This document shows positions 7,162-64,000 of a stretch of DNA of 64,000 nt, piece by piece; the stretch's first letter is position 1, and every line of letters starts with the position of its first letter. The position numbers were made by a program, and so were the translations under genes. Source of the stretch: Arenicellales bacterium (GTDB taxonomy: Bacteria; Pseudomonadota; Gammaproteobacteria; Arenicellales; UBA868); the NCBI GenBank assembly GCA_030747115.1, contig JASLLH010000001.1, positions 1,734-65,733 on the forward strand, written 5' to 3'. The notes beneath the pieces are model-generated. The model did no database searches, had not been told where the DNA came from, and saw nothing but the letters and a program-made list of their open reading frames with translations.

Positions 7162-7170
7162 ATCAACAAA

Positions 7171-48600: not shown

Positions 48601-49261
48601 TCTCAAGCGTTTCTGTAACAGCATGCCGGCGGCTTTGCTGGCCGCGAAGGATCAAGGCCCTGGGGCGGGCATCGATGCGGAGCAATTGCAGAACTGGGCT
48701 CTCGCCGAAACCGCGCCTTCAGAGCCGCTTGATCCCGGGAAGATCGACGCCTTTCTTGAACGGGTTTCGTCGTTGCTGCCTGCTCCGATCGCGGATGCCA
48801 TCCGGAATATCATCAGGCTTCCTGCGCAGATGCCCGGGCCCACCGGTGAAAGCAACCACTGGACGCTTTATCCCCGGGGCAATGTTCTGTGTCTTGGACC
48901 GGGAGTTGAGAATCTCGGGATACAGGTCTGCCAGGCGCTCGCCCTGGGGAACCGTGTGCTCGCCGTTGGTGTAGAGATTCCGGAACTTTCCGAGACACTT
49001 GCAGACTGGCCTCTGGAGACCTGCTCCGGGACGGTTGCTGCCGAGGTTTTGAAAAGCGTTCAGGGTATCAACGCGGTCTGCCTCTGGAGGGCGGGTTCAG
49101 ACCTTCGGCCCTGGCGCACAGCGCTTGCAGAACGCGAGGGGGTGATCGTGCCGCTGCTGAGCGATCCCGGTGACGGGGACCAACTTGTGCTCGAGCGCCA
49201 TGTCTGTGTCGATACCACCGCCTCCGGGGGCAATACAACGCTCCTGGTGCAGACAGCCTAA
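45626..49261 (+). CDS. putA: Bifunctional proline dehydrogenase / L-glutamate-gamma-semialdehyde dehydrogenase
   Basis: 1211 aa. The PRODH region shows FSYDMLGEAA and LVKGAYWD. The ALDH region shows FTGSIETA, with the catalytic Cys in GQRCSALR. Confidence 0.92.
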   Translation: MNTASDKARQQIHLIRREGEPARIHALLGNWQPGADFQDQIQGRALGLVEKVRAQKSPNLLEAFLAEYGLSTDEGVGMMCLAEALLRVPDSITIDALIEDKIVPGRWSRHLNHSSSSLVNASTWALLLTGKLLNPDLASGIVDTLRATVKRIGEPAVRVIIGEAMKELGRQFVLGRDIGEALAHSGALKEKGYAFSYDMLGEAARSDADARRYHLSYSEAISALAPGCSPTAVRQNPGISVKLSALHPRFEHGKRGRVMTELLGRVSALAQLARSASMGFNIDAEESERLDLTLDIIEALLDEPALADWEGFGVVVQAYHLDAAAVIDWLYTLAKRRQRRIMVRLVKGAYWDTQIKRAQVMGLETYPVFTRKAGTDLSYLACAKQLLAGREHFYPQFATHNAHTMATVMALAGGPDESFEFQRLHGMGESLHRLVREEQGYPCRIYAPVGAHRDLLAYLVRRLLENGANSSFVNQLLDHDIPAADVVSDPLDQIRHVANAPSHPKIPRPADLYQPARRNSAGRDLEDRHSVETLQQEMAPFAGSVWQPLQDATPPLRGTALQVRNPAQPKEQVGVIHEASAGDVDPAIERAKSALGSWRQLSASMRGARLNRAADLYETHFAELMALASREAGKTLLDGVAEIREAVDFLRYYASRAENLSRSITPRGVFACVSPWNFPLAIFTGQISAALAAGNCVIAKPAEQTPLMALRAAELMHQAGVPKDVLQCLPGPGETVGAALAADPRIGGVCFTGSIETARHIHRSMALAGNPAAPLIAETGGINAMLVDSTALPEQVVRDVLVSAFQSAGQRCSALRILYLQEDVKDRVLDLLFGAMDELQLGDPLDLATDVGPLIDASALEGIRSYCERQKTADRVLKQLDAPADGYFMGPTVIEVSGIGAIAREVFGPVLHVASFAAGEIEQLLSAINGHGYGLTLGLHTRVDVRVQQVVDRAQVGNIYVNRNQIGAVVGTQPFGGEGLSGTGPKAGGPLYLKRFCNSMPAALLAAKDQGPGAGIDAEQLQNWALAETAPSEPLDPGKIDAFLERVSSLLPAPIADAIRNIIRLPAQMPGPTGESNHWTLYPRGNVLCLGPGVENLGIQVCQALALGNRVLAVGVEIPELSETLADWPLETCSGTVAAEVLKSVQGINAVCLWRAGSDLRPWRTALAEREGVIVPLLSDPGDGDQLVLERHVCVDTTASGGNTTLLVQTA

Positions 49262-49328
49262 GCATTCGGTATGGTTGCGCCTTGATCAATCAGTGCAGAT
49301 CGTCAGACCCCTGTAAAGGAGGGCAACC

Positions 49329-50534
49329 ATGACCTCGGGTGTGGGAGGCTCGACAGCCGATCAGGAACTGGGCGCGTTGTCCCGGCAGACGGGGTCCGTT
49401 CCGATTTCATCGGATGAGCGCCAGGGACGTATTGCCAAGGCGCAGCGACTGATGGTGGAGCAGGGCATCGACGCGCTGTACCTTGATGCTTCGACCAGCC
49501 TTTTTTACTTTACGGGCCTGCGCCTGTGGGCAACGGAGCGGCTGCATGGAGCCGTAATCCCCGCTCGGGGAGACCTTGTCTACATCACCCCCGGGTTTGA
49601 AGAAGAAAAGACCCGCGCCATGCTGCTCTTCGGTGATGACATCCGCACCTGGGAAGAGCACGAAGATCCCACGGTACTGGTCTCGCAATGTATCGCCGAA
49701 ACGGGCGGCGCATTGCCGCGGGTGGCGGTTGACCCGGCCACGCCGTTTTTTGTCTTTGCTGGGCTGCGCCGGGCCCTGCCGCAGGCCGAGTTTCTTAACG
49801 GTACATGCATCACTGCCGGATGCCGGATGCAAAAGTCCGCCAGCGAAATTGCGCTGATCCAGTTTGTGATGAACCTCACCCTCAAGGCGCAGCAAAGCGC
49901 TGCCCGGATTCTTGCGGCGGGGATGAGCACGGTGGATGTACAGGCGTTCTTGACTGCGGCACATCTTAAGCTCGGTACCGATGGCCCGCCGGCTTTTCGT
50001 ATCGTGCTGTTTGGCGAACCCACCGCCTATCCGCACGGGGTGCCTTATCCGCAGGAACTAAAAGAAGGGGACATGGTGCTGATTGATACCGGAGCGACGG
50101 TCGATGGGTATTTTTCCGACATTACCCGCAGTTATGTCTTCGGTGAACCCAGCCAACGACAGCGCGAGGTCTGGAACCTTGAAAAGGCGGCCCAGGCGGC
50201 GGCGTTTGCCGCAGCGAAGGTCGGCGCTCCTGCGGAAACCGTTGACCGTGCTGCGCGCGATGTTATCGAGGCCGCAGGCTTTGGGCCGGGATACAAAGTA
50301 CCGGGCCTTGCCCACCGTACCGGACATGGCATTGGCCTCGATATCCACGAGGAAACCTACATCGTGCCCGGCAATACCACCGCGCTTTTGCCGGGGATGT
50401 GTTTTTCCAACGAGCCGATGATCTGTATTTACGGCGAGTTCGGCGTGCGCCTTGAGGATCATGTGTACATCACCGATGACGGACCGCGCTGGTTTACAGA
50501 ACCTTCTCCCTCTATCGACCAGCCGTTTGCCTGA
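49329..50534 (+). CDS. M24-family metallopeptidase (Xaa-Pro dipeptidase/creatinase-like)
   Basis: 401 aa with a creatinase_N-like N-terminal domain. Pita-bread metal ligands lie in DTGATVDGYFSDITR, HRTGHGIGLDIHE and FSNEP...GVRLED. Confidence 0.8.
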   Translation: MTSGVGGSTADQELGALSRQTGSVPISSDERQGRIAKAQRLMVEQGIDALYLDASTSLFYFTGLRLWATERLHGAVIPARGDLVYITPGFEEEKTRAMLLFGDDIRTWEEHEDPTVLVSQCIAETGGALPRVAVDPATPFFVFAGLRRALPQAEFLNGTCITAGCRMQKSASEIALIQFVMNLTLKAQQSAARILAAGMSTVDVQAFLTAAHLKLGTDGPPAFRIVLFGEPTAYPHGVPYPQELKEGDMVLIDTGATVDGYFSDITRSYVFGEPSQRQREVWNLEKAAQAAAFAAAKVGAPAETVDRAARDVIEAAGFGPGYKVPGLAHRTGHGIGLDIHEETYIVPGNTTALLPGMCFSNEPMICIYGEFGVRLEDHVYITDDGPRWFTEPSPSIDQPFA

Positions 50535-50582
50535 AGGGTCGACGGAGTCCCTGAAGGATCCTCCCAAAGCTCATGGTGAGCG

Positions 50583-51029
50583 TCAGGCCGGTTTTTCGAT
50601 CAGTTCAAAAGTGATGCCGTCGGTATCGCGCAGATAAACCACCTGCGCTCCTGCATTGGGGCCCTGATCCACGGTGATGATTTCACCCTCGACGGTAACG
50701 CCGTGGCTGGCCGCGGCCTCTATCAGTTCATCGAGGCCGGTCACATCATAGGCAATGTGACAAAAGCCCGTGTCGCAGGCCCGGGGCCGTACCCTGGCGC
50801 GGTCATCCGGCCCGCTGTACTCGATGAGTTCGATACTGTGACCCGGCCCGCGGACATACGCGATCACGGCCCGGGCACCATCAATTCCTGTGACGCGCTC
50901 TATGACCTCGGGTGCCCGGGGCGCTTTCGAGGTGACTTCAAAGCCCAGCACATCCCGGAAAAAGGCAATGCTGCGGTCCAGGTCTGAGACGGTAAAGCTC
51001 GTATGGTTGGTGGCGAGAATCTGAGGCAT
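50583..51029 (-). CDS. VOC-family (glyoxalase/bleomycin-resistance/dioxygenase) protein
   Basis: It starts at MPQILATNHTSFTVSDLDRSIAFFRDVLGFEV (ATG at 51029-51027). The 95-codon upstream extension in the ORF track has no support. Confidence 0.75.
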   Translation of the reverse strand: MPQILATNHTSFTVSDLDRSIAFFRDVLGFEVTSKAPRAPEVIERVTGIDGARAVIAYVRGPGHSIELIEYSGPDDRARVRPRACDTGFCHIAYDVTGLDELIEAAASHGVTVEGEIITVDQGPNAGAQVVYLRDTDGITFELIEKPA

Positions 51030-51082
51030 AGTGTTTGATATTGAGGAGGTCTTTCGAGTGTACCCGCCCAGATGAAGTGTTG

Positions 51083-51160
51083 TTAAGAGGCGTTTGCCTG
51101 TTCCCGTAGCTTGAATTTCTGGATCTTGCCGGTCGAGGTCTTGGGCAGTTCGCGTGTGTG
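51083..51160 (-). pseudogene. 3-prime remnant of an acyl-CoA synthetase gene (last 25 or so codons only)
   Basis: My minus-strand translation reads ...HTRELPKTSTGKIQKFKLREQANAS-stop (stop at 51085-51083). It closely parallels the C-terminus of the intact ligase at 23095 (GELPKTSTGKIQKFVLREKAQNL). No AMP-binding body is visible upstream. Confidence 0.6.
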
Positions 51161-51898
51161 GCTCAAAACACGTTCGCCGAAATGCCCAAATGCGCAGCCG
51201 ATGCCCCCGGAAGTTCTGCCATAACCCCAAACCACCGGTGAATCTCATGGCAGCGGAGGGGGAACGAAAAACGGATACCCAAGTACAACGGACGGTCTTG
51301 CAGAAACAAAACATTGATCCAAGTCATGAAATGTTGTCTTAGATTGTATTGCCAGAACTAAGGTGATAGCCCGCTTCCGGCCAAAATGATGTAATCATGT
51401 CTCGGTCTAAACCACCTTTGGATAGGGGTAGCGCAAGAAAGGTTCGAGAGCACTGATGATCACCACCCGCCTCGGTCACCAGGTGCCCCGTTGGCACCTT
51501 GCCTGCCTCGGATTCTCCCAGGTGCTCTCAGGCTGGAGTCATATCCATAACTGGGCGGTCTCTTCCCACAGTTCACTGTTAAGCGGTTCGGCAAGGATCA
51601 CAGTCTCTGATGTCATCTCCGGCTGGGGGATGTCAGATACCCTGCATGATGTTCTGAACCGCAAGAGAAGAACCGATCACCGCTACCGTTCAGGACAGGA
51701 TGTTCCTGCTTTAGGAGCATCAAAGGCATCCCGCTTTCTCTCTCCCTCCGGGGTCTGTCAGAGCTGCAGCAAAGACAGGCAGATCCCAAGATTCTCTCGA
51801 TGTATTTCTGAGTTGTTTTTGAAGTTCAACTACCTCGTCACGGGCTCGCGCAGATTCAGGCGTTTATCGATCCGCGCTCTTTCTACAAGGCGCTCTGC

Positions 51899-51927
51899 TT
51901 GCGGGGGGGGTAACGAAATGCTATCAG
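51899..51927 (+). promoter_or_regulatory. Candidate sigma70-type promoter for the island operon (TTGCGG-17 nt-TATCAG)
   Basis: The -35-like TTGCGG is at 51899-51904, followed by a 17-nt spacer containing a G8 run. The -10-like TATCAG is at 51922-51927, 31 nt before the ATG at 51959. Both hexamers match the consensus only weakly. Confidence 0.25.
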
Positions 51928-51958
51928 TTCCTGACTTCCTGGCCGGAGGACATATGAG

Positions 51959-52498
51959 ATGGATATGTTAACAATCCCGGGTATCACGCCAGACCAACAA
52001 CTCACATTGATGGCCTGGGGGATAGGAGGATCCTTTATTGCATTGCTTTTGGCGGGAATGACGAATCGCGTAGTCATTTTTGCCAATGGTGGGGATCTCA
52101 TGTGGACGCTATCGATATTCCTTGCACCAATTGCGTCATTTGTGATCGCGGCGACTCTGGTTCCAGAGGGAAAGGAGTTTGAGGACGAGACTGTCGCGAT
52201 GGTTGTAATGGGTGTGGGGGGTGTGATTGCTGTCGTTGGGTGCTTAAAGACGATTTTCTCATCGATCAAGCACAACGGGTTAGTTCTCGGAATCATCGTC
52301 GCGATTTTCAAAATTCTGGCAGCAGTATTGGCTGCTGTTTGTGCAATAGGATTTCTTGGAAAAATCTTTGAGGACAACGCATCGTTTTCATCCAGAATGA
52401 TTGGATTGGTCTTTTTCGGCCTCCTGTTATGGGTGATGAGGAAATTGATCAATGGTGATGAAGTGCGGGCACGCCGCACAGAACTTAAGTCGGCATGA
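51959..52498 (+). CDS. Small polytopic inner-membrane protein, unknown family (island gene A)
   Basis: 179 aa with about 5 hydrophobic helices (LTLMAWGIGGSFIALLLAGM, LMWTLSIFLAPIASFVIAATLV, VAMVVMGVGGVIAVVGCL, LVLGIIVAIFKILAAVLAAVCAIGFLG, MIGLVFFGLLLWVM). An RBS GGAGGA lies 8 nt upstream. Confidence 0.6.
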   Translation: MDMLTIPGITPDQQLTLMAWGIGGSFIALLLAGMTNRVVIFANGGDLMWTLSIFLAPIASFVIAATLVPEGKEFEDETVAMVVMGVGGVIAVVGCLKTIFSSIKHNGLVLGIIVAIFKILAAVLAAVCAIGFLGKIFEDNASFSSRMIGLVFFGLLLWVMRKLINGDEVRARRTELKSA

Positions 52499-53169
52499 GG
52501 GGATATATTAGAGGGGGTGAAGGTCATATGAGATTAATTTATACGGTAATTGTTCGAGGCTTGTTGGTTGTGGTTTCGGCTGTTTTCCTGGTGCTGTCGG
52601 CCAACGCTGAGCAGTTCTACGTAGGCAACACGGTCTACAACGTCTGTATGAAGTTGCCTTTGCTTGAGACACCGGATAGAGATGCGGCGGTGATTGGTGT
52701 TATGGGCTACGGTGATTCTGCGCACGTCGCCTCAGTGCACGGCAGATATGAGCTTCCTGCATCCGATCCTTCGTCGGAAGCTTCCCAACGGGCAAGGCTG
52801 CCGGATCGGAACGAGGATGACCTGCTGCTCGAAACCCTGTTCCGGAGAGTGCGCTGGGCCGGTCTAACGGGAAAGGGTTATGCGAGCGCTAGTTGCCTTG
52901 TAAAGCAAGAACTATTCCCGAAACAGCAACCGGGACTGGCCCAGGAAAAAGTCGCAAAACTTAGCTCAAAAGTTGGCAAGCGTGGGTTTTCTGAAGAAGA
53001 GGAGGGCGATCTCGTAGCAATGCGCGGGGCGGCTGGAAAGGCCAAAAAGAAACCGGTAGCACAAAACCAGATCTCGAATGCTGGTTATCTTGAGGCATTT
53101 TTTATTGCATATAAATCTCAGGACAACACGGAGTTCAGACGTCAGGGCGGGCTTGGGGAGTTCAAGTAG
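52495..53169 (+). CDS. Secreted protein, possible SH3b-like N-terminal module, unknown function (island gene B)
   Basis: The ATG at 52495 overlaps the gene A stop (ATGA). An alternative ATG at 52528 gives a classical signal peptide, MRLIYTVIVRGLLVVVSAVFLVLSANA/EQ. The C-terminal part carries GAAGKAKKK. Confidence 0.6.
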   Translation: MRGYIRGGEGHMRLIYTVIVRGLLVVVSAVFLVLSANAEQFYVGNTVYNVCMKLPLLETPDRDAAVIGVMGYGDSAHVASVHGRYELPASDPSSEASQRARLPDRNEDDLLLETLFRRVRWAGLTGKGYASASCLVKQELFPKQQPGLAQEKVAKLSSKVGKRGFSEEEEGDLVAMRGAAGKAKKKPVAQNQISNAGYLEAFFIAYKSQDNTEFRRQGGLGEFK

Positions 53170-53252
53170 TGAAACTTCGCTTTAGACCGGCTTTTCGGTG
53201 CGGCCATTGGCGATGAGATCTAAAGGTTCGGATAAATGGGAGGATACAGAAC

Positions 53253-54911
53253 ATGAAGGTGTTTGATAAGCCTTGTGTATGGATAACGTTGATTGCTAAG
53301 TCAACTTTTACGGTATTGGTCTCCGGGATAACGGTTTCATCATTCGCGGGACCCGCTGATGATGAACAACTGCTGGGTTTATGGCAGAGTGACCATGGAT
53401 GTGTCGTGCATATCTTTGAAGATGAATCGGGCAGCCTTGCCGGTGCCGCCTGGGGCAAGGGCAAAGAAAGCGCAGAATTAATCATTGAGTTCTCTGGCGA
53501 TCGGCGGTTTGCATGGAAGCGCAAGACCAAGAAGTCGGGCTTTGGCGATGACGGCGAAGTGGATCCTAAGCGATCGGGCCGTTTCATCGTAGATCTTCAT
53601 GATCGGCAGGTTCTTCATAGCGATAATTGGCCCTGCTACCACCAACGCACTGGGCCTGCGGCAAAGTTCTCTCGGCTTTCACCTGCGAAAGCCTCAGGAC
53701 TTTCAGTGCCAGACTGGTACTCCGATACGCTTTCTCAGGTCATTGAAGGGGGTTCCGGTGTTGGCACTGCCAAGGCGAAATCGCAGCCGCAGGAAACGCA
53801 AGTTGCAGAGACTTCCCAACCCACTTCAGTAGCGCAATCCCTGCAGGGAGTCGCTCAAAACAATCAGGCAGAACAGACCTCCCAGAGCGGCGGCCTCGGT
53901 GGCTTATTTAACGCTTTGAACACCTTCAATCAGCAGATGCAGGAGCAGGTGGCGGGCCAGTTCCCGAATGCCGCGTCGAATCAGGGTCAGTCGTCTGCGT
54001 TGCCGAGCAATAGCACGGAGTCGGGTGGGCTCGCGGGTCTGTTTGGCGCTGCCGGCAAGAAAAAGAACAGGACGACAAGTCCATCCTCTGGCCAGGGGCA
54101 GTCATCTACCACTGGGCTGGGAGGATTGTTGTCGGGGTTGGCGACGGCGGATCAGCCATCATCGGGTTCAGATAGTGGGCCGCGCAATCTTGAGGAGTTC
54201 AGGGAACTGGTGACTATGGGGCCCGTTGATGCCCACTTTTTGGGCAAGACACTAGCTGAAGGAGAAATGTTAGGAAGTGCACCTGCTTTTCCGGTTACAG
54301 ATAGCAGAGTTCGCTATGTCCAGGCGATTTTGGACACTCTTGTTCGCTACAGCCGTACCCCATTCGTTTACCGGGAATATGTCGCGATGGTCTTGGACGA
54401 TGATGAAGAGATAAACGCCTTTGCCGCTCCCGGGGGATTCATGGCTGTCTACACCGGAATGCTGAACCTTTGTGAAAACGAGGATGAACTGGCGCTTGTT
54501 CTTGCGCATGAACTCGCTCACTCGGAGTTAGATCATGGGATTAGTGCAATCGTGCAGCAACAGAGTTCCAAATTCTTCGGAACATTTGCAGGAGGTATGA
54601 CAGGCAATGATCTGGTCGGGAACTTTGCAAATTCGCTCTATGATATCGGCGTAAAGGGCTACAATGTAGAGATTGAGGCTGAAGCGGATGAAAGAGCTCT
54701 GCTGATAGCAGAGCGGGCTGGTTATGATCCTAAATGGTACATGGGTGTGATGGAGAAGCTGCACACTTTCAAGGGTCATTATGGGGGTGAAGGATATCCG
54801 CCCAATCGTGCAGAGTTAATCCGACACCACTTGGGCAAAGTCTCGTATCTGGGGAGTACCGAGGCTTTTGCCGCACGAAGCGCGCGGTTTCATACTGTTT
54901 TCGGTCATTGA
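53253..54911 (+). CDS. Secreted M48-family zinc metalloprotease with N-terminal beta-rich module and long Q/S/G low-complexity linker (island gene C)
   Basis: 552 aa, with an RBS gggagga. The signal-like N-terminus is VWITLIAKSTFTVLVSGITVSSFA/GP. The M48 pattern is INAFAAPGGFMAVYTGML...DELALVLAHELAHSELDH (HELAH at 54507-54521), followed by EIEAEADERALLIAERAGYDP. Confidence 0.75.
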   Translation: MKVFDKPCVWITLIAKSTFTVLVSGITVSSFAGPADDEQLLGLWQSDHGCVVHIFEDESGSLAGAAWGKGKESAELIIEFSGDRRFAWKRKTKKSGFGDDGEVDPKRSGRFIVDLHDRQVLHSDNWPCYHQRTGPAAKFSRLSPAKASGLSVPDWYSDTLSQVIEGGSGVGTAKAKSQPQETQVAETSQPTSVAQSLQGVAQNNQAEQTSQSGGLGGLFNALNTFNQQMQEQVAGQFPNAASNQGQSSALPSNSTESGGLAGLFGAAGKKKNRTTSPSSGQGQSSTTGLGGLLSGLATADQPSSGSDSGPRNLEEFRELVTMGPVDAHFLGKTLAEGEMLGSAPAFPVTDSRVRYVQAILDTLVRYSRTPFVYREYVAMVLDDDEEINAFAAPGGFMAVYTGMLNLCENEDELALVLAHELAHSELDHGISAIVQQQSSKFFGTFAGGMTGNDLVGNFANSLYDIGVKGYNVEIEAEADERALLIAERAGYDPKWYMGVMEKLHTFKGHYGGEGYPPNRAELIRHHLGKVSYLGSTEAFAARSARFHTVFGH

Positions 54912-54936
54912 GATATCGAATTAGAAAACGTGACGA

Positions 54937-56778
54937 GTGATTGTCTTGGCCACTTCCCCCACAAACTCCTCCTCTAAAGAGCTCGAACAAACAGAACTTC
55001 TACAGCGTCAAGCGAAAGCCGTCGAACGGATTGCGCAACACCTGGCGCCCGAAGCCGAGGAAAAGAGAAGCGCTCGGCTCCGCCGGGTACTTACATGGGT
55101 AGCTACCCGGACCTTGCTTCTAGGCGGCTTACTTGTGGGAACCTGGGAATCTGCCCAATGGCTTTACCAAACGTGGGAGACTCGAAGCGCGGCACAGGAT
55201 TATGCGATCGTCGCTAGTGACCTCTTCTATAAAGAAAATAACCCAGAGGTTGCCCAAAAACTCTTAGAAGAGGCAATTGAACTCGACTCAGACAATTTCG
55301 ACTTCCGGTTTCTGCAGGCCTATATCGTAGGAATGGCGAGTGTCAGGACGTTGTTAAACCTGGATCGCCCCTATACAAAAGAAGAATTGGATCTCGCGCA
55401 TGAAGCTTTAGCAAAGGCATTATTTCTGGAGCGGCAGTCGCCAGGTAAACCCGAGTCCGAGATCTTAAGAGGGCAAATCTATGCGGCATTGTCGGACTAC
55501 CAACGGGCTCGGGAATCAATCCTGAGGGGAATTCAAAAAATCCCTGAATCCAACCTCCACGAAACTGAAGAGACTGGACCGTTGCGCGAGAAATTTAACG
55601 CGTCAGTGCTCTTTATTCTCGACCTAGTTGGCGGCGCAAAGTTAAAAGCCTTTACAGTCGATCTCTTCAAGATACCTCAAGAAGATAGCCCGCAAAACGC
55701 AAATTTTGCGTTCGCATATATCCGTCTAGCGCTAATTGAAAATCAGTTAACTGGTGTGGACTCTGCATACAGATATCTCGACAAAGCACTGACCTATGAG
55801 CCGAATTCAAAATGGGCTTTTCTGTGGAGGGGTGTATTCCAAGGCCAAGAAAAAAAGTGGACCGCGGCAAGAGAGCAATACGATCGTGCAATTGCCGTCG
55901 ATCCCAGATTTGACCTCGCTTATTACAACAAGGGATGGACATATCTCAAAGACACTGAGAAGAACTACGGCGCGGCGAGAGATATGTTTCAAAAAGCGTT
56001 GTCCATCAATCCCAACTACAAGGAGGCGTACTATGGTCTCGGCATGGTCTATGGATACCAGAACAAATATCAAGTTTCAAAGCGCTATCTGACTCGGGCC
56101 ATAAGTATCGATGATAAGTTTTTAAGCGGCTGGAAGTGGCGTGGGATCGTCAACGATGAACTCGGATTACTTGACGATGCATTGACAGATTTTTCTACGG
56201 CCATCTCACTGGATCCAGCCAACGAAGACCTCTATGTCCGGCGCGCACGAGTACTCAAGAAAAGGAAGCAGTATCAGGAATCTCTTGAGGACCTTCTGCT
56301 CGCAAAAGATTTTAATGCTAGCAACTATCGTATTCCCTTCTACACCGGCCAGGTGTTTGCTGAGTTAGGTCAGACGGCAAACGCTATTGAGGAGTTTGGC
56401 AATGCTCTCGAGTTGCGTCCCAACTATGGCGAGGCGTTAATTGGGCGCGCTGCGGTTTACGAGGCAATGCAGAACACCGAGCTCGCAATGCTCGACTACA
56501 ACGAGGCAGTCAGGCATGTGACGTATCGGCGAGAGCGTGTTCTGCACAAACGAGGAGAATTCTTGGCGCGGCAAAGCGATTACAACTCTGCATTAGCAGA
56601 TTTCCGTCTCGCTCGTGAGTTGAATCCGCGTTATGCCAGGTCATGGCTTGCTGAAGCTCAGACGTTGAATAAGTTGGGGGATTCCGAAGGAGCATATAGT
56701 GCAATAAACGAGTATTTGAAGCTTAGACCACAATCGGAAGAGGCTCAGGCGCTGAAGGAGAGCCTGCCCAAGCAATGA
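54937..56778 (+). CDS. Membrane-anchored tetratricopeptide-repeat protein (island gene D)
   Basis: 613 aa. A charged N-terminus of about 55 aa is followed by one TM (VLTWVATRTLLLGGLLVGTW) and then many TPR-like units (for example AIAVDPRFDLAYYNKGWTY, ALSINPNYKEAYYGLGMVY, ALELRPNYGEALIGRAAVY). There is no in-frame ATG near the 5-prime end, so a GTG at 54937 is assumed. Confidence 0.8.
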   Translation: MIVLATSPTNSSSKELEQTELLQRQAKAVERIAQHLAPEAEEKRSARLRRVLTWVATRTLLLGGLLVGTWESAQWLYQTWETRSAAQDYAIVASDLFYKENNPEVAQKLLEEAIELDSDNFDFRFLQAYIVGMASVRTLLNLDRPYTKEELDLAHEALAKALFLERQSPGKPESEILRGQIYAALSDYQRARESILRGIQKIPESNLHETEETGPLREKFNASVLFILDLVGGAKLKAFTVDLFKIPQEDSPQNANFAFAYIRLALIENQLTGVDSAYRYLDKALTYEPNSKWAFLWRGVFQGQEKKWTAAREQYDRAIAVDPRFDLAYYNKGWTYLKDTEKNYGAARDMFQKALSINPNYKEAYYGLGMVYGYQNKYQVSKRYLTRAISIDDKFLSGWKWRGIVNDELGLLDDALTDFSTAISLDPANEDLYVRRARVLKKRKQYQESLEDLLLAKDFNASNYRIPFYTGQVFAELGQTANAIEEFGNALELRPNYGEALIGRAAVYEAMQNTELAMLDYNEAVRHVTYRRERVLHKRGEFLARQSDYNSALADFRLARELNPRYARSWLAEAQTLNKLGDSEGAYSAINEYLKLRPQSEEAQALKESLPKQ

Positions 56779-58976
56779 GAAACTACCTGTATGTAAGTAG
56801 ATCGACATATATCACGGTCGTCCTTGCTTTCTTATTGTTGTGCCGACCGGGATTGGCGGATACGAAAAATCTTATCTCCATCATTGGAATTTACGAGGGT
56901 GAAATTGAATCCATCAATATGGTTCCGGTATCGACGGAGTTTTATCTGGATGACTCCACCCGCCTGATCGGCCGGTACAGGTATCAAGACCAGGGGGCTT
57001 GGGATTACGGCGAAATATTTAATATCCGAGCGACGTCGAATTGTTCAAACCTCTTGGGAACCCGCGGCGGGAGTACCAGTCAGGACAGCACGACAACTGG
57101 ACAAAATTCAATAGGTGTGTTTGGTGCTGCGGGTAAGAAGAAAAAAAAGAATAAGTCCCAAGGCGCTGCGAGTGACACAAGGGGAGAACTCTGTATCACA
57201 GGCATTTGGAGCGACAATTACGGGCAAGGGCAAGTAAGCCTCGTGTTCAGCCCGACCCGAGACTCTTTTAGCGGTTACTACAGAGCGAGTGCCGAAGATG
57301 AATGGGCTATCTGGCGGGGGGCAAGTATCTCAAGGAGTAACAGCCAAGCAAACACAAGGGTTACTATAGATACGGAGGTCAACATTCCTTCATCGGGAAA
57401 GACTGATGAATCATCGTCCGGCGAACAAACAATATATGAGCAATTCGAAATACGTGACGTCTATGGTGAAAGCGAGAGAGATGCGATCAGGACGGCCCTT
57501 GCATTCGCTGTAGAGCGCAAAGTCAATCAATTACAGGCATCTCGTTTCATTCTGGATTGGTTTAGTGCCAAGGCACTATATCTTGAGGACTTTAAAAAGG
57601 ATTACTTTACGCCTGATACGTTTACTTCATGTGTTCCAGCTACCGAAGGCCAGTACAAATGTTCGGTCAAAGGCAGCCTTAAGGTATTGGCGATTAGAGG
57701 TGATATTGAGCAGGCCGGCTCCAGTCAGTCTTTGCAGGAGCAATGGCGTGGTGAAATCGCCGAGTCCGTGGCTAGCTTGGTGAGGTCAACTTCAGATAGC
57801 CAAACGGTATTTCTCTCGGATGTAACAGATCAGTCTACAAGTAACTTGTTTTACCCGTTCTCGCGGAAGATAAGGGACGAGATCGGGGAGTCTATCCTGG
57901 AGAGAAATCATAAGCTAAGCCTCAATCCACTTGAGGCAGAACTGTTCTTGTTCGCGGGTTATGAAAAACGCGAATCGGGACTCGCGTTATCGCTTTCCCT
58001 TACCGCTTCTGCGACCAACCAAGAAGTTGCCAAGGAGTTGGTCACGATACCTTTTCCAAAATTACCAGAAGGGTGGGACCAGCGATCGATGAAGGATGTT
58101 GCCTATGAAATCGGGATGAAACTGCAGAAGGCCGTGTATCCCCAGAGAGTGAATTTCAGACGGCAGGGGATCGTAATTTCAGATCTCAAAGGTTCGATTA
58201 GTGAGTTTTCTTCAGCGTTGGAGGGATACCTTGCCCAAGAACTCGAAAGGCGAGATGCATTTATCCGTGTTCCAGAGGGGTCTGATGCGCCGGGATTCTT
58301 CAACGTTCAGGGTAGTTTCGAGAGACTTGGCGAGGAAGTGGCTTTGAACATTTCTTTTGTCCATCCGGAGTCCAAAGAGATTATAGGAAGTGCCCATAGT
58401 GTTATTCAGTTGAAAGATATCCCTTCGAACCTTCGCTTGACTCCTCATAACGAGGCTATTGCCGCGGAGGTAGTCGAATCTGCCGAGAGCAAAATCCCTG
58501 AAGGCCTGCAGGAGTCAATCCGACTATGGGTTAACCATTCTTCCAATCTCTATCGCGCCGACGATCGTCTGGTTGTGAGCGTTGAGGCGAGGAGGAACCT
58601 CTACCTAAGACTCTTCTATATCCAATCTGACGGCCTTATCTGTCAAATCTACCCCGCTGGGAATAACGGGGCTGGCTTTCTGCGGGCCGACCAGGTCTAT
58701 GAAGTTGGGGGAAAAAACGATGTGGTTGAGTTGGTGATCTCAGACGAGACGAAAGGGGAGGAAACGATAAAAGCGTTCGCGTCCCTGGGTCCTATTGAAG
58801 ATGCTTCCCTGCCAAAGGTATTCAACCATGAGGCAAATATGTCGTGTATGACTCAAGGGTACCGTCAACTGCAAAATGATTTGACTCGAGCATTAAAGCT
58901 CAAATTCAAGGTCCGCCCTGTGGCGGAACTGAAAATTCTAATTACGGAAAAAGATTTAACCGAGACCCGGTCTTAA
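56775..58976 (+). CDS. Secreted or lipoprotein-like multidomain protein with C-terminal DUF4384-like domain (island gene E)
   Basis: 733 aa. The ATG overlaps the gene D stop (ATGA). The signal peptide is ITVVLAFLLLCRPGLA/DT. The C-terminal LWVNHSSNLYRADDRLVVSVEARRNLYLRLFYIQSDGLICQIYPAGNNGAGFLRADQVYEV...ETIKAFAS fits my memory of the DUF4384 pattern. Confidence 0.65.
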   Translation: MRNYLYVSRSTYITVVLAFLLLCRPGLADTKNLISIIGIYEGEIESINMVPVSTEFYLDDSTRLIGRYRYQDQGAWDYGEIFNIRATSNCSNLLGTRGGSTSQDSTTTGQNSIGVFGAAGKKKKKNKSQGAASDTRGELCITGIWSDNYGQGQVSLVFSPTRDSFSGYYRASAEDEWAIWRGASISRSNSQANTRVTIDTEVNIPSSGKTDESSSGEQTIYEQFEIRDVYGESERDAIRTALAFAVERKVNQLQASRFILDWFSAKALYLEDFKKDYFTPDTFTSCVPATEGQYKCSVKGSLKVLAIRGDIEQAGSSQSLQEQWRGEIAESVASLVRSTSDSQTVFLSDVTDQSTSNLFYPFSRKIRDEIGESILERNHKLSLNPLEAELFLFAGYEKRESGLALSLSLTASATNQEVAKELVTIPFPKLPEGWDQRSMKDVAYEIGMKLQKAVYPQRVNFRRQGIVISDLKGSISEFSSALEGYLAQELERRDAFIRVPEGSDAPGFFNVQGSFERLGEEVALNISFVHPESKEIIGSAHSVIQLKDIPSNLRLTPHNEAIAAEVVESAESKIPEGLQESIRLWVNHSSNLYRADDRLVVSVEARRNLYLRLFYIQSDGLICQIYPAGNNGAGFLRADQVYEVGGKNDVVELVISDETKGEETIKAFASLGPIEDASLPKVFNHEANMSCMTQGYRQLQNDLTRALKLKFKVRPVAELKILITEKDLTETRS

Positions 58977-58986
58977 GGAAGCCATT

Positions 58987-61278
58987 ATGAATAGGGAAAT
59001 CAAGGCGAGAATGATAGCAATATCGACAGCGTGGGTATTTGGATTCGGGCCGTTAGGTGCGTCAATTGCCGAGGCTGAAGACTACACCTTTGTAAATGAC
59101 AAGGAAGCTATCGCAGATCTTGTCGAGGTCAAAGCGCTTGAAGACGCGAAGAATCTGACTAAGTCCGAGGTCGAGGAACAAAACCTCGCGTTAGAGGACG
59201 ACCAATTTATTGTGGTTACCTACAAGAATCTCGCGGCATGGATCACGTCGTCATCGGATTTTTCTCCCAAGATCGACGGTAAAAACAAAGCACAGAAGAA
59301 AGGATTAGAGCAGCTTTCCACTCTTGCGACAAAGGCAGGATTGGTCTTAGCAATAAAGAAAGTCAATGATGAAGAAGGAAAGCCATTTACAGAAAAGGAA
59401 ATAGCGACGTTGTCGGAAGAGGCGTTGGATCGGCTTGAGGAGGTGCTCGCATCCTCAGATGGACTACGGCGAATCAATGAGCGCGTGGATCGTGATGGTA
59501 TTTTTTCCAACAACCAGTTCGTTGTTGCTGATTACTATTTGCGCATCAGCAAGGAGGCAATCCTTGAAGAGATCCAGCCATCTCCAATTGTTCTGACTTT
59601 CGAAGTGCCCGAGATAGATGTGTCGCAATTCTCGAGCGATACGCATTACGTTGCTCGCTTCGTGGATGTAGAAGTCCCGATCATGAAAACCAAAGGAGAA
59701 GGCGAAGCTCAGTGGGCGAAGGGTTTCGAAGAGGCCATTTTTGCGATCTCAAAAGAGGCTTTTGCGAAAGCGGTGGTTGCTGTCAATAAAGGACTTCGGT
59801 ACCCGCAACAAAAAGCTGCGATTGATCAACTAATCGCAGACTACACGGCTTCAGGGCAGGACAAATACCGACTGATTGCCAAAGACTACGAGGTCAAGAA
59901 AAAGGAGGTTTGGCCAAAAGGTAGCCTCCGTCCTAGAAACAGTCAGGATGTCCTTAAGGTATCTGCCTTTTTCTATTTCGATCGGGAAAAGATTAAGAGT
60001 CTTGTAATCCCGCCCAAGAGAGCTATCGCCCTCGATGCTGGTAGTGATCGTGTCGTTGAGGCAGCTCCACTTGCGAGTGAGGGGCTCTTTGTAGGTGTTT
60101 ACAAGGATTACACCATTGAGGTACCGGATGATCTGGAAACTAAAGCAAAGGCACGTCAGAGCGCTCTCGATGACGCGGTGTCGGCGTTTAAACGTACAGC
60201 CCTAAAAGAAGCGGCAAACGAAATCGCGCGGCGTCTTTCCCAACCCACCAATGAGGGGGAGATTGCAAAGGTTCTTGGGAACGCGTTCAAGCAGGATAAA
60301 CGTTTCATACTAGAGTTCGGCTGGGTGACTCAGCCATCAGTTTTAACCCGGGGCAACTACAGTACCGCTCCGGAGACGCTCAAACTCTCCGCGTATGTCA
60401 CGGTTGACCAGTCGGCGCTCCAGGATCTACTTATTGCTGAGAAGATTATTACGATCGTGGGTAAGTACCGCACCTACGTCGAGCTCTTCTGGAATGTCCC
60501 GGACAAGGATATCAATCCGGAGGTCGTGCAAACGCTGCTCGCTACAGTGGAAGATGGGCTGCGCTATGAAGGCTATGAAGTGGTTGAGTTTGAACGCATC
60601 AAAGGTGACCTTGTTACTCTCTTGAAGAATGACGACTCAGCCCAGGATCTGTACTCATCAGATGAACGGATTCGTTTTAAAGCAAATCTCGCACTGCGAA
60701 ATATCGATTCGCGTTTCGAGAATGGCAAGAGAATCCTTGCGGACTATGCGGACCTGGTCTTTGGCGTCACCATTAACTCACTCGAGGTCGTGGGTAACCG
60801 GGTCAATGTCAGAGTCACTTTAGACGCTACATTCTTCTCGCAGGGAGAGTGGATGAAGCTCGCGAGCTTCGACAGCGCCCTTCAGGTTCCGTATGTAGAA
60901 GGCAGTAAAGACCACCTCATCGGTGTCGTGAAAAAAGCCGGGATCAATGCGCTTGCGGGGATCAAAACCAAAGTCCAGTCGCAGCTGGCACTTCGCAAGG
61001 ATCGTGAAGAGTTAAACCTGACACAAGACCGGGAGTTCACGCTGGTTTTCGCTGGCATGGATAAGCAACAGTTCGGCAAAGTCAAGAAACGCCTCAGCAA
61101 AGGAAGCAAGTGGGCGTACAAGCGGGCCGACTTTAAATCGCGGTCAATTTACGTTGCCTATGTTGGAAATATCGACTCGCTTGCCGACATGGTGCAGATG
61201 TATCTTGAGGGAGCTGATCTTGATCCGGGAATGGGAGAGTACGCGAGTGGTGTTAACCGTATTCTCTTCGGTGAGTAA
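58987..61278 (+). CDS. Secreted 763-aa protein with three LPP20-like modules, unknown function (island gene F)
   Basis: RBS aaggaag. The signal peptide is MIAISTAWVFGFGPLGASIAEA/EDY. Internal three-fold repeat architecture is described in the findings. Confidence 0.65.
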   Translation: MNREIKARMIAISTAWVFGFGPLGASIAEAEDYTFVNDKEAIADLVEVKALEDAKNLTKSEVEEQNLALEDDQFIVVTYKNLAAWITSSSDFSPKIDGKNKAQKKGLEQLSTLATKAGLVLAIKKVNDEEGKPFTEKEIATLSEEALDRLEEVLASSDGLRRINERVDRDGIFSNNQFVVADYYLRISKEAILEEIQPSPIVLTFEVPEIDVSQFSSDTHYVARFVDVEVPIMKTKGEGEAQWAKGFEEAIFAISKEAFAKAVVAVNKGLRYPQQKAAIDQLIADYTASGQDKYRLIAKDYEVKKKEVWPKGSLRPRNSQDVLKVSAFFYFDREKIKSLVIPPKRAIALDAGSDRVVEAAPLASEGLFVGVYKDYTIEVPDDLETKAKARQSALDDAVSAFKRTALKEAANEIARRLSQPTNEGEIAKVLGNAFKQDKRFILEFGWVTQPSVLTRGNYSTAPETLKLSAYVTVDQSALQDLLIAEKIITIVGKYRTYVELFWNVPDKDINPEVVQTLLATVEDGLRYEGYEVVEFERIKGDLVTLLKNDDSAQDLYSSDERIRFKANLALRNIDSRFENGKRILADYADLVFGVTINSLEVVGNRVNVRVTLDATFFSQGEWMKLASFDSALQVPYVEGSKDHLIGVVKKAGINALAGIKTKVQSQLALRKDREELNLTQDREFTLVFAGMDKQQFGKVKKRLSKGSKWAYKRADFKSRSIYVAYVGNIDSLADMVQMYLEGADLDPGMGEYASGVNRILFGE

Positions 61279-61284
61279 CCAGCC

Positions 61285-63390
61285 ATGAAAACCATATTGA
61301 AAGCCATTTACTCGGCATGCCTACTGCTGTTGCTCGGCATTGGTGCCGCCAATGCCTCGTCGATACTGGTGATTGGTGCCGACGCCAAGATCACAACTCA
61401 GCTTAATCGACTGGTGCCGACAGCGCTAGAGCCCCTGACAACGAAAATCCGAGTAGATAACGGGAAGGGGCTCGTTACCACGGACGAGGGCACTGAGATA
61501 AGAAGTGAATCGTTGTTCACTTCTGATATCGCCAGAAGTCAGGCGGCGCTTGAGGACTTAAGCACTGAGTATGCGCCGAAGTTCCTGCTGGTGGGATGGG
61601 TTGCGGATGAGAAAACTCAGGAGTATGCAAGCTATGGCCTGGAACTCATTGAAGTCACCCTTGAGGTTCGTCTTATTGATGTCATTCGCGGAAAGTCCGT
61701 TTACGAAACGACGGTTCGGCATGGGACCGAATTTTCAACCAAAGAGATAGATGAAGCGTTTCGACAAAAAGTGATCGCGGCTGCGCTTGGCAAACTGGAT
61801 AACGAAGTGCTTTCCTCTGCATTGGAAAGCTACATTGCCAGTGAGCAGGGCATTCAGAATCGTCTCAGGGTCGTGATTGCTGGCCTAGATCAGGAGAACT
61901 ACTTCGACCTTCGGGATCTCATTCTTGATGCAGTCACCCGTGTCGGTGTGCTTGAGGAGGCGAGAGTCAGTTACTCGCAGACGTCTGGCGAGGCAACGGT
62001 AAGGATAGTGACAGCAAAAGGGGTCGCGGAGTTTTACCGTGGGCTTTACGCCTCTTTTAATGCGGTGCAAGAGATTGGTGGATTTGAAACCTTTCGAGAG
62101 GGTTCAAGTATCAACCTTACTCTGCAGCCGCTTGCGCGTCGAATCATCTCGATCAAGACCCTTTCCCCGAAAGATTATGGATCGCTGGGTCGGTATCTTG
62201 TATCGATTGTGAGTGACGCGCCCGGCGTTAGCGATGTAGCCCAATCGTATTCAGAAAAAGACCAGACCCTGGTGATTGAGTTTGTGCTCAAGGGTAAATC
62301 ACTCTACGCGGTTGATGGCGTTGTCTGGAGTGCAATTGTTGAAGATGTTCGCTTTAAAGATTTTGCCATGGGCAAGATCGACCAGAGGGAGATTGAGTAT
62401 TTCTTCAGTGGCAGGGAAGGGGCTGCGAACAGTGATGTCATCGTCACTCTCGCGGATGTCAGTAGCGAAGAGTACAAGAAGGTCGCAACGGCATTTTCCG
62501 ATCTCATCAGCCAGATTGAAGGCGTTCGGGACCTTCGGTACCGGTATGACTATGAGAAGAAGGCGGTCGTGTATCGGTTTAAGTACGAGGGCGAAGGCAT
62601 CCATAGTCTTGACGATGCGATCGTGCGAGGGATGCTTCCCGTTGAGATCTTTCAGCACACCGGCAAGGGACCTGAGCGGATCGGTCATCTGACCTATGTG
62701 TTTAGCAGTTCTGTCGAAGAAGCGGAAGTGCGAGCGAGTCAGAAACAGAATCAAGTGATTGCAGGAAGCGTTGCTGGGGCCCCAGATCTCGCAGCTCTTG
62801 ATCACTCGGTGATCTATATCTATAGCGAAGGCGAGGTAGGGGCGTCAGAAGGGACCGGATTCTTCGTGAGCGAATCGGGATACTTTCTGACCAATGCGCA
62901 CATTATCAAGGGCCCTAACAACTATGTAGCAACTTTCAGTGGCAATGAATATCGGGCAAACCTGATCCAGGTTGATACCAACCTTGACCTGGCGCTGCTA
63001 CGAATTGTGACCAATGTCGATGTCTTCTCCCCCGTGAAAATCGGTGATAGCAACGCGGTCCAAAGAGGTGACGCAATAGTGGTTATCGGCAACCCGGACG
63101 GGGGTCGATTTGCGCATAGCGTGCTCTCAGGGATAGTCAGTGGCGCCAACCGTGAATTGGGCCTGCTTCAGTTGTCCGTGACGACTTACGGAGGCATTAG
63201 TGGTGCTCCAGTATTTAACAACATTGGCGAGGTAATCGGAGTGATGGTGTCCGTTCCTCAAACAAAGATCGATACCAAGATGACCGTAGGCAACGAAACA
63301 ATAAACGTCCCGATGGTGAGCCAGATGAATGAATTTGGTTTTGCGATCCCGATCAATCACGCCAAAGGACTGCTACAACTCACACACTGA
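61285..63390 (+). CDS. Secreted protein: about 500-aa repeat-containing N-terminal region fused to a trypsin-like (S1/S1C) serine protease domain (island gene G)
   Basis: 701 aa. The signal peptide is ACLLLLLGIGAANA/SS. The protease core runs GTGFFVSESGYFLTNAHII (His539, codon 62899-62901), LDLALLRI (Asp568) and GGISGAPVF (Ser639). No PDZ domain follows. Confidence 0.75.
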   Translation: MKTILKAIYSACLLLLLGIGAANASSILVIGADAKITTQLNRLVPTALEPLTTKIRVDNGKGLVTTDEGTEIRSESLFTSDIARSQAALEDLSTEYAPKFLLVGWVADEKTQEYASYGLELIEVTLEVRLIDVIRGKSVYETTVRHGTEFSTKEIDEAFRQKVIAAALGKLDNEVLSSALESYIASEQGIQNRLRVVIAGLDQENYFDLRDLILDAVTRVGVLEEARVSYSQTSGEATVRIVTAKGVAEFYRGLYASFNAVQEIGGFETFREGSSINLTLQPLARRIISIKTLSPKDYGSLGRYLVSIVSDAPGVSDVAQSYSEKDQTLVIEFVLKGKSLYAVDGVVWSAIVEDVRFKDFAMGKIDQREIEYFFSGREGAANSDVIVTLADVSSEEYKKVATAFSDLISQIEGVRDLRYRYDYEKKAVVYRFKYEGEGIHSLDDAIVRGMLPVEIFQHTGKGPERIGHLTYVFSSSVEEAEVRASQKQNQVIAGSVAGAPDLAALDHSVIYIYSEGEVGASEGTGFFVSESGYFLTNAHIIKGPNNYVATFSGNEYRANLIQVDTNLDLALLRIVTNVDVFSPVKIGDSNAVQRGDAIVVIGNPDGGRFAHSVLSGIVSGANRELGLLQLSVTTYGGISGAPVFNNIGEVIGVMVSVPQTKIDTKMTVGNETINVPMVSQMNEFGFAIPINHAKGLLQLTH

Positions 63391-63413
63391 TGTAAGGGAC
63401 CCGGGCCACGGTT

Positions 63414-63542
63414 ATGGACGGACAGGAACTCTTCACTGCCCTAAGCAGGGAGGTGCAACTCAATGCTGATCAGATTCCTGAATACGGTGATATCCGTAAA
63501 GCCGGCCATGACGGCGGGGATTTTCTGTTTGTAAGACAATGA
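63414..63542 (+). CDS. Candidate 42-aa small ORF translationally coupled to the next gene
   Basis: My translation is MDGQELFTALSREVQLNADQIPEYGDIRKAGHDGGDFLFVRQ-stop. Its TGA overlaps the ATG of the downstream gene (ATGA at 63539-63542). It is below the ORF-track length cutoff and has a weak RBS. Confidence 0.25.
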   Translation: MDGQELFTALSREVQLNADQIPEYGDIRKAGHDGGDFLFVRQ

Positions 63543-64000
63543 AAGTTTTAGGAAAACGAGTCAGGTCGGTTCGAGCCCTCTGCGTAGTTACCGCATTGGG
63601 AATCTCTAGCGCTTTTCCAAGCCTCTTATTCGCTGACGAGCTGATTGAGTACCGGCCTCTATTTAAAAGAGGTACTTCGGCTGACAAGGGCTACTGCTAC
63701 GGGGCATTGAAAGACCCATCCCGATGGCATGATGGGGATCCCCAGAAACAGATTGGTCTAGAGCACTGTTGGGATTTCATGAGTGTTGATGGTAAGTATT
63801 GGACGGGACGCCCTCTTTCTTCCGATAAGAAGGAACATCAGCTTGGCCATTACTGGGTCTACTCCTTACAGGCTTATCTTGGTGACTACAACGCGACGTA
63901 CTACATCGCGCGGGAGGCGCGCGTCGGGCGCCTGAGTGATGGGGACCTAGACAAAGCGGTCGAGTTAACAAAAAAATTAGCCAAAAGAGGTCATACAAAA
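63539..64000 (+). CDS. Secreted protein, partial (runs off the window end), possibly entering Sel1/TPR-like helical repeats (island gene H)
   Basis: My translation stays open from the ATG at 63539 to the window end (154 codons): MKVLGKRVRSVRALCVVTALGISSAFPSLLFA/DELIEY...HYWVYSLQAYLGDYNATYYIAREARVGRLSDGDLDKAVELTKKLAKRGHTK. It has a clear signal peptide. Confidence 0.55.
   Translation, partial: MKVLGKRVRSVRALCVVTALGISSAFPSLLFADELIEYRPLFKRGTSADKGYCYGALKDPSRWHDGDPQKQIGLEHCWDFMSVDGKYWTGRPLSSDKKEHQLGHYWVYSLQAYLGDYNATYYIAREARVGRLSDGDLDKAVELTKKLAKRGHTK

Follow-up and report, generated by a model that had tools for sequence, protein, structure and literature searches.

A conserved, extracytoplasmic set of scaffold-type proteins and proteases on a hypervariable genomic island of Arenicellales

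We examined a stretch of 64,000 nucleotides (nt) from an Arenicellales bacterium, an uncultured marine gammaproteobacterium (GenBank assembly GCA_030747115.1, contig JASLLH010000001.1, positions 1,734 to 65,733 of the forward strand; the window from here on) and describe a low-GC island at its right end whose gene set is, in silico, entirely extracytoplasmic. Nine co-directional, closely packed open reading frames (ORFs) on the plus strand occupy positions 51959–64000 and encode scaffold-type proteins together with several classes of protease. Our preferred reading is an outer-membrane-tethered, scaffolded periplasmic protease system made of two linked modules and carried on a mobile hypervariable island; we hold it tentatively, at a little under an even chance. 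Related loci and contigs are labelled L001, L011, L020 and so on, where L001 is a metagenome contig that carries the island and extends past the window. The genes are as follows, with protein lengths in amino acids (aa):

51959–52498, plus strand: A, 179 aa, polytopic membrane protein with five predicted transmembrane segments, restricted to this lineage
52495–53169, plus strand: B, secreted protein of 213–224 aa, signal peptide ending ...SANA before EQ; module 1
53253–54911, plus strand: C, secreted M48 zinc metalloprotease (HELAH); module 1
54937–56778, plus strand: D, GTG start, tetratricopeptide repeat (TPR) protein of 613 aa; module 1
56775–58976, plus strand: E, 733-aa secreted fusion protein composed of E-N and E-C
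58987–61278, plus strand: F, 763-aa secreted scaffold-type protein; member of the core triad
61285–63390, plus strand: G, 701-aa secreted protease; member of the core triad
63414–63542, plus strand: 42-aa ORF, left over from the C-terminal tail of a caspase gene
63539–64000, plus strand, cut by the window end: H, full protein 563 aa with signal peptide, Sel1 repeats and Peptidase_C14
L001 13854–15953, past the window end: I, 699 aa with signal peptide, MORN and Peptidase_C14

The nine ORFs had been listed in a first-pass annotation of this DNA and are all present. The gaps between them are even smaller than the 150 nt or so allowed there, the widest being 83 nt (B/C). Of three ATGA start/stop overlaps proposed, those of D/E and of the small ORF with H are real, and the A/B overlap hinges on the start chosen for B, for which most gene callers prefer M12 (52528). 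Base composition falls below that of the flanking core as had been described, both in GC (0.59–0.62 upstream and 0.48–0.52 inside the island) and in GC at third codon positions (0.66–0.69 in flanking genes and 0.45–0.57 in island genes). An exact look-up of G retrieved the same gene order in at least 23 marine metagenome contigs from Tara Oceans and other sources. Since this order recurs in at least 23 identical contigs, and about 30 other loci show a diverged version of it, the arrangement is not due to chance. The identical contigs also supplied the sequence past 64 kb, where the operon continues, H is completed and I follows.

Export was called with a heuristic scan for hydrophobicity and signal peptides. 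Signal-like N-terminal segments were found in B, C, E, G, H and I, and five transmembrane segments in A; the signals of F and D are weaker. The initial claim of a signal peptide or transmembrane segment on every long product therefore holds for A, B, C, E, G, H and I and less clearly for the other two. D has a single transmembrane candidate with a mean Kyte-Doolittle value of 1.46 and no 19-aa window reaching 1.6. Homologues give a consistent picture: in about 30 loci, every relative of E, F, G and the caspases opens with a signal peptide, and a lipobox is present in about 10 of the F homologues. The predicted signal peptides are thus present both in the heuristic scan and in the homologues.

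Next, we followed the families through sequence collections. F is rare: a word-indexed search returned 8 clusters among 5.8e9 proteins and a full HMMER scan 31 representatives among 1.84e9, and the word-indexed search with a profile of the F family returned close relatives only. No relatives of F were found in plasmids, phages or IMG/VR. Pattern scans located 2 loci in GTDB species genomes (one in a metagenome-assembled genome (MAG) of Bacteroidota and one in an unclassified MAG) and 28 in metagenomes. In nearly every one of these loci (about 30) a DUF4384 protein of about 430–470 aa, F and G stand in fixed order on one strand, and we refer to these three genes as the core triad. The Bacteroidota MAG carries the triad together with a C14+PEGA+FGE-sulfatase protein, and the minimal form consists of F and G alone, between RecQ and SerRS. 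Homologues thus recur outside this genome, in fixed order and across phyla, and we conclude with high confidence that the locus is a conserved unit. Elsewhere the triad adjoins PIN/DUF6364 and ParE/Phd toxin-antitoxin pairs (L044 3735–5229, L045 1–1193), and in L046 an IS200-type (Y1_Tnp) transposase (13602–14084) and a MacAB-like exporter lie alongside it.

The scaffold character of F and G emerges from structure models. The AlphaFold2 model of F, built from an 18-sequence alignment, has a mean predicted local distance difference test score (pLDDT) of 80.7 and shows three tandem modules of FlgT/LPP20/CsgG fold (residues ~74–196, 220–340 and 367–484), followed by the most conserved domain of the family (495–680) and a ferredoxin-like C-terminal domain (682–761). 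The three LPP20-like modules noted at first are borne out by alignment of the family profile with itself (hhalign, E 9e-30). Foldseek against the PDB matched F to the LPHT ring (8z5n, 3.4e-6) and FlgT (3w1e, 1.1e-5), then to GNA1162 (7e-5), CsgG (3e-4) and PelC (1e-3), and also returned Cj1090c, CT253, LptE and the N-terminal domain of TolB.

For G, the AlphaFold2 model has a pLDDT of 66.6, with residues 25–475 at about 75–85 and the protease part poorly modelled. Residues ~25–190 form an LPP20/FlgT-fold domain, whose Foldseek matches were GNA1162 (4.5e-6), CT253 (6.5e-6), FlgT 3w1e (9e-6) and 8z5n (1.4e-5), with PelC and CsgG also returned. Behind it lie three ferredoxin-like beta-alpha-beta-beta-alpha-beta repeats (192–280, 285–374, 384–472; self-hhalign E 4e-22), which resemble multi-RRM proteins and the porter subdomains of AcrB and, weakly, secretin N-domains; members of the G family have 3–5 such repeats. 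The protease domain follows at residues 523–653 (Pfam Trypsin_2, 1.4e-29) and is of HtrA type. Its triad H539, D568 and S639 is intact and kept across homologues, so that both the alpha/beta repeats and the trypsin-like triad of the earlier description stand. Pfam finds no PDZ domain in G, and the chain ends about 45 residues past the protease domain. Against TIGR02037, G scores 86.7 bits, compared with a cut-off of 416 bits. Full-length homologues of G occur in Bacteroidota and other MAGs. The fold common to F and G is visible in the structure models only: profile-profile comparison of the E-C, F and G families revealed no cross-family similarity, and in the F family LPP20 is matched by a single one of the 18 members (E 0.075).

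Completion of the operon changed the count of proteases. H, described earlier as a plain secreted protein, is in fact a Sel1 + Peptidase_C14 protein (PF00656, 2e-22; L001 12166–13857), and I, which overlaps it by 4 nt, combines MORN with Peptidase_C14 (PF00656, 2e-25). With H and I both belonging to C14, the operon encodes four proteases (C, G, H and I) and not two, and all four have intact active sites in silico. The His/Cys dyad, in the form of YYAGHG and DSCFSG, is displayed by nearly all C14 paralogues at these loci. At the N-terminus the paralogues carry different domains (Sel1, MORN, pentapeptide repeats, Glucodextran_B, TonB_2, PEGA/FGE-sulfatase), and all of them, whatever that domain, end in a common C-terminal tail, G[HD]DGGDFLFVR[QR], as seen in L001 12166–15953, L017, L019, L020, L025, L028, L030 and L035. 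This tail may be a docking or sorting signal. The 42-aa ORF upstream of H (...GHDGGDFLFVRQ) matches H at 5e-15 and I at 1e-13 (phmmer) and is what remains of a caspase gene, not an independent small protein.

Secreted C14 genes adjoin the triad in at least 14 loci, and most of the other contigs end near the triad. The largest expansion is on a 36-kb contig (L020 48–21869), where seven secreted caspase paralogues, four upstream and three downstream of the triad, differ in their N-terminal parts (MORN-like, pentapeptide repeats and others); L047 holds three paralogues.

The genes B, C, D and E-N are a second, separable module. In L011 and L012, module 1 occurs without the triad and is followed by CsgG+FlgT_C proteins, an Asp-protease–CsgG/FlgT_M/LpoB fusion and a DUF6844 protein. 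Module 1 of L023 and L024 adjoins the triad in divergent orientation, with the module-1 genes on one side of the triad and CsgG-like and DUF6844 genes on the other. The two modules meet in E, of which residues 1–314 (56775–57716) are E-N and residues ~320–725 (57732–58949) are E-C, the DUF4384 protein of the core triad. L023 and L024 encode E-N and E-C as two distinct genes, and some 25 loci have E-C by itself; the E of the window is thus a fusion that joins both modules, and this fusion recurs in homologues at 76–81% identity. Pfam DUF4384 covers residues 593–670 of E (1e-12; 58551–58784), which bears out the DUF4384-like end of the original assignment, and the FlgO-like part of that assignment is reached below threshold only (3 of 18 members of the E-C family, best E 0.004). 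The E-C profile had no significant match to PDB sequences.

Domain searches agree with the assignments made by motif for C and D. C belongs to M48 (PF01435, 5e-21; HELAH visible) and has an N-terminal domain at residues ~38–157 and a Q/S/G-rich linker with GAAGKKK; its top NCBIfam match is BepA (NF052400), at 47 bits against a cut-off of 570 bits. In L043, a 793-aa caspase (5034–7415) carries a domain homologous to this N-terminal domain (residues 38–157, E 1e-17), which indicates that accessory domains are shuffled between protease classes at these loci. D is a TPR protein (TPR_1/2/8 and others, 1e-37) that starts with about 50 residues, followed by a single segment of moderate hydrophobicity and then by the repeats; it is retained in both L011 and L012. 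Pfam gave no match for A, B or F; homologues of B are present in L011, L012, L023 and L024, and A has no homologue in the other mapped loci. A gasdermin-like identity was considered for A or B and rejected: neither has a PADLOC or Pfam match, and both are membrane or secreted proteins.

B, C and E-N have in common a basic motif, GAAGK(K/A)K(K/R)K, set inside S/G/Q-rich low-complexity linkers. E-N carries it as GAAGKKKKK. The positions are:

~53026–53052, plus strand: motif in B (GAAGKAKKK)
~54045–54068, plus strand: motif in C
~57123–57152, plus strand: motif in E

The motif is kept in every module-1 locus (the window, L011, L012, L023 and L024), sometimes duplicated, and is absent from module 2. 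We regard it as a candidate site for TPR binding or for cleavage by a protease.

The island itself is delimited by a duplicated gene end. The convergent acyl-CoA synthetase (acs) gene lies 9 nt past I, and a relic of the same gene marks the opposite edge:

51083–51156, minus strand: left boundary, relic of the acs gene comprising its final 22 codons plus stop (RELPKTSTGKIQKFKLREQANAS, then the stop)
51157–51958, plus strand: island leader, holding ORF U171 (51456–51971, 171 aa)

The left copy of the resulting direct repeat is perfect over 43 nt (51111–51153) and imperfect over about 58 nt (51094–51153), and the right copy lies at L001 16012–16054, within the intact acs gene. The flanking repeat implies an insert of about 16.2 kb in the 3' end of acs, from 51154 to the window-equivalent of ~67385, so that the island reaches about 3.4 kb past the window. 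It shows two traits of integrative islands, namely a direct repeat that duplicates the target and a GC of 0.50 versus 0.59. No tRNA or tmRNA was found in the window. The left flank encodes core metabolism (PutA, an M24 peptidase, a glyoxalase). The glyoxalase ORF (50583–51314, minus strand, 243 aa) has its Pfam domain at residues 102–237 only and is probably over-extended at its 5' end, with a true start near 51029, because synteny with L025 stops at 51031 and the L025 ORF has 148 aa.

L025 and L028 show what else this site can hold. L028 has at its left edge a longer relic of the same acs gene. The flank of L025 is 87.6% identical at the nucleotide level to window 49033–51031, and its island reads, in order, a 1349-aa caspase, a DUF4384 protein, F (1068 aa; ~37% identical) and G. 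Strongly diverged content at an identical site is the behaviour of a hypervariable island of the replacement type. Within the leader, 51449–51701 is conserved in both variants (78.6% nucleotide identity to L028 and ~70% to L025). The first 85 codons of U171 match the 5' ends of the caspase ORFs of L025 (1349 aa) and L028 (1401 aa) from the same ATG, the leader indels, 6 and 108 nt long, are divisible by 3, and the two caspases have a W/H-rich N-terminal tail before a hydrophobic segment. U171 is probably the truncated 5' end of a large ancestral gene for a membrane-anchored caspase, as judged from these alignments. A structured RNA at 51449–51701 was also considered and set aside: Rfam gave nothing at gathering thresholds or at E<=1, and the hairpins show, by eye, no compensatory changes. 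Given the in-frame indels and the shared caspase ATG, the leader is read as a coding relic plus regulatory region and not as an RNA gene, and its identity of 70–79%, next to 87.6% in the syntenic flank, makes its conservation unexceptional. Eight of ten independent island contigs (L001–L010) start inside 51375–51580, just right of the left boundary, which suggests that strain-level variation breaks assemblies at the island edge.

How these parts might work together can be proposed by analogy, with moderate-to-low confidence. FlgT/FlgP, CsgG and PelC oligomerise into rings under the outer membrane, and in the same manner E-C, F and the N-terminus of G would assemble into a ring or disc tethered to that membrane. 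This scaffold would position and gate the G protease, its domains standing in for the PDZ domains of HtrA, and the caspases would dock on it, perhaps via their shared C-terminal tail. C and D resemble a split BepA. D, anchored in the inner membrane, would bind the basic motif, or Lys/Arg-specific caspase-like or trypsin-like enzymes would cut it, or both; orthocaspases are described, in a passage of PMC6426788, as cutting after basic residues. E would then be a cleavable tether between an inner-membrane TPR receptor and the outer-membrane scaffold, and the cascade would sense a breach of the envelope by phage, toxin or predator and respond by proteolysis. A role in biological conflict or envelope surveillance is put forward with low confidence, on account of the rare, patchy, cross-phylum spread, the low-GC composition, the exchange of content at one fixed site, the relics, the caspase expansions with their variable binding domains and the toxin-antitoxin neighbours. 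An extended version of the proposal, in which the locus is an NTPase-free periplasmic counterpart of cytoplasmic death/immunity platforms, seems to us possible but rather doubtful. It would combine an outer-membrane-tethered FlgT/LPP20-fold ring, an HtrA-type protease and diversifying secreted caspase-like sensor-proteases, envelope invasion would trigger a proteolytic cascade that cuts the poly-Lys tethers between this scaffold and an inner-membrane TPR receptor, and the whole would be a new class of extracytoplasmic system for conflict or surveillance, carried on a replacement island exchanged among marine bacteria. The earlier idea of a scaffold-plus-protease machine is largely supported by the data above; that the parts act as a machine we infer.

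Several observations count against the preferred reading. The F, G and E-C families reach no LPP20, CsgG or FlgT sequence model, the Foldseek template modelling scores are modest (~0.26–0.6 on target), and the oligomeric rings are drawn from analogy. The transmembrane segment of D is only moderately hydrophobic, and the F of the window has a signal of the signal peptidase I type without a lipobox. Since cleavage by proteases of the HtrA type usually follows an aliphatic residue, the poly-Lys motif may not be a substrate of G. In L023 (4320–5786) and L024 (6060–7526), the G homologue (488 aa) consists of the scaffold part without the trypsin domain, and proteolysis by G is therefore not essential to every variant. 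No integrase or recombinase was found among the island genes. PADLOC-DB 2.0 recognises no defence system, returning generic trypsin- and caspase-domain matches only and none for A–F, and the conflict role, which we grade at low confidence, draws on circumstantial features of the island type.

Other explanations each take up some of the parts. The modules that resemble CsgG and secretin N-domains might export or surface-anchor G, H, I and C for the digestion of external protein by a marine heterotroph, and there is something to be said for this: CsgG and PelC belong to outer-membrane export systems, the G repeats weakly match secretin N-domains, four proteases have signal peptides, L011 encodes an Asp-protease–CsgG fusion and L046 a MacAB-like exporter alongside the triad. 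Yet no beta-barrel, secretin or transmembrane-hairpin element is found in any island protein, C14 enzymes are processing proteases of narrow specificity and not bulk digestive ones, the G homologues of L023 and L024 are without a protease domain, and variable sensor-like caspase domains, paralogue expansions and the rarity of F fit a nutritional role poorly; we consider it unlikely. Quality control by a split BepA-like pair, in which C and D together with G mature or degrade outer-membrane proteins or the lipoprotein-like scaffold proteins of the island itself and the caspases are incidental cargo, is in our view quite unlikely. BepA joins an M48 protease and a TPR domain in one chain, and here the M48 and TPR genes are adjacent, BepA is the top NCBIfam match of C and the protease domain of G is like those of DegP, DegQ and DegS. 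The scores, however, are far under the equivalog cut-offs (47 vs 570 and 87 vs 416 bits), the core kept across loci consists of DUF4384, F and G with caspases, mostly without M48 and TPR, and rare, low-GC, hypervariable islands do not carry housekeeping genes for quality control.

F and G find their top structural matches in FlgT and the LPHT ring, which would also suit a structural periplasmic ring or disc for a machine encoded elsewhere, such as a flagellum, pilus or secretion system, of the kind that FlgT/FlgO/FlgP provide for the Vibrio motor; the flagellar discs of Campylobacter, built by TPR and LPP20-like proteins, speak for it too. We think this very unlikely: no flagellar or pilus gene was found in the island, in about 6 kb of left flank, in the one gene to the right or in the ~30 loci, the triad occurs in a Bacteroidota MAG, and the proteases would be left unexplained. 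Assembly of a matrix or of an amyloid-like fibre of curli or Fap type, the alternative offered in the first-pass annotation on the strength of Q/N/S/G-rich segments, found no support and is highly improbable. C and E do have S/G/Q-rich linkers, and F and G have CsgG-fold modules, but homologues of CsgA/B/E/F or of Fap proteins are absent by Pfam and NCBIfam, and the low-complexity stretches are short linkers around the basic motif, confined to module 1, and not amyloid repeats. Each of these rivals explains some parts; none explains the triad-plus-caspase core or the behaviour of the island.

If the scaffolded protease system is real, bacterial caspase-like proteases would gain a dedicated extracytoplasmic machinery, in a compartment and in a partnership with a FlgT/LPP20 scaffold and a PDZ-less HtrA that have not been described for them. 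It would likewise mean that the ring-forming lipoprotein fold of flagellar discs, curli and Pel export has been newly used as a protease scaffold, and the triad with one caspase and the GAAGKKKK motif would offer a tractable set for studying how periplasmic proteolysis is gated. Replacement-island behaviour in the abundant mesopelagic Arenicellales suggests strong diversifying selection, as at defence or surface loci, and a diversifying island of this sort is relevant to marine phage-host ecology. Even with a mundane function, the Pfam-orphan families F, the G N-terminus and E-N/B gain an annotation by fold or by context.

Comparison with known systems sets out what is familiar here and what is not. 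Profile searches, AlphaFold2 models with Foldseek, and PADLOC place the gene set in no characterised system. With the H/T ring of Vibrio (FlgT/FlgO/FlgP; 8z5n, 3w1e), the island shares the alpha/beta fold of F and of the G N-terminus. In Campylobacter, the basal-disc protein FlgP is accompanied by the TPR proteins PflA and PflB, and the island resembles these assemblies in the lipoprotein nature of F in many lineages, in having a TPR gene and in the periplasmic location of all products. In contrast, F and G fall outside Pfam FlgT_N/M/C, FlgO and LPP20 by sequence, their modules are arranged in tandem in one chain and fused or coupled to proteases, and the island is rare, mobile and also present in Bacteroidota. 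Flagellar genes were not found in the island, in window positions 45.6–64 kb or in the ~30 related loci. The lipoproteins CsgG, PelC, GNA1162, Cj1090c and LptE are like F in fold class and like its homologues in being outer-membrane lipoproteins, and the related loci L011 and L012 encode genuine Pfam CsgG-domain proteins. Unlike CsgG and PelC, the island proteins come without CsgA/B/E/F or PelA-G partners and without evidence of a membrane-spanning hairpin, and Pfam and NCBIfam gave no match to CsgG, CsgA, CsgB, CsgE or CsgF among the window proteins.

Among proteases, the closest relatives of G are HtrA, DegP, DegQ and DegS (S1C), with which it has in common the Trypsin_2/Do-family match and the H-D-S triad; it differs in lacking PDZ domains, in scores below cut-off and in some 500 N-terminal residues given over to an LPP20-fold domain and ferredoxin-like repeats. 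C recalls BepA in its M48 domain, in the TPR gene directly downstream and in the extracytoplasmic location of both products, but M48 and TPR are split here, the TPR protein is membrane-anchored and much larger, and C has an extra N-terminal domain and the basic linker motif and scores 47 bits against 570. What H, I and their paralogues share with orthocaspases (C14) is the p20 domain with its His/Cys dyad and a varied set of interaction domains, Sel1 among them. The orthocaspases that have been described are mostly stand-alone multidomain proteins of the cytoplasm, whereas those of the island have signal peptides, which on all paralogues point to the periplasm, a shared C-terminal tail and an obligate neighbourhood with the DUF4384–F–G triad. 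DUF4384 is known from a remark in the literature as a companion of protease domains, often fused to them, and our literature search returned no description of this gene set. Because the island departs in these ways from the flagellar ring, from curli, from HtrA with its PDZ domains and from BepA, and has no counterpart in the literature searched, we conclude that known folds have here been put together into a system of a new kind.

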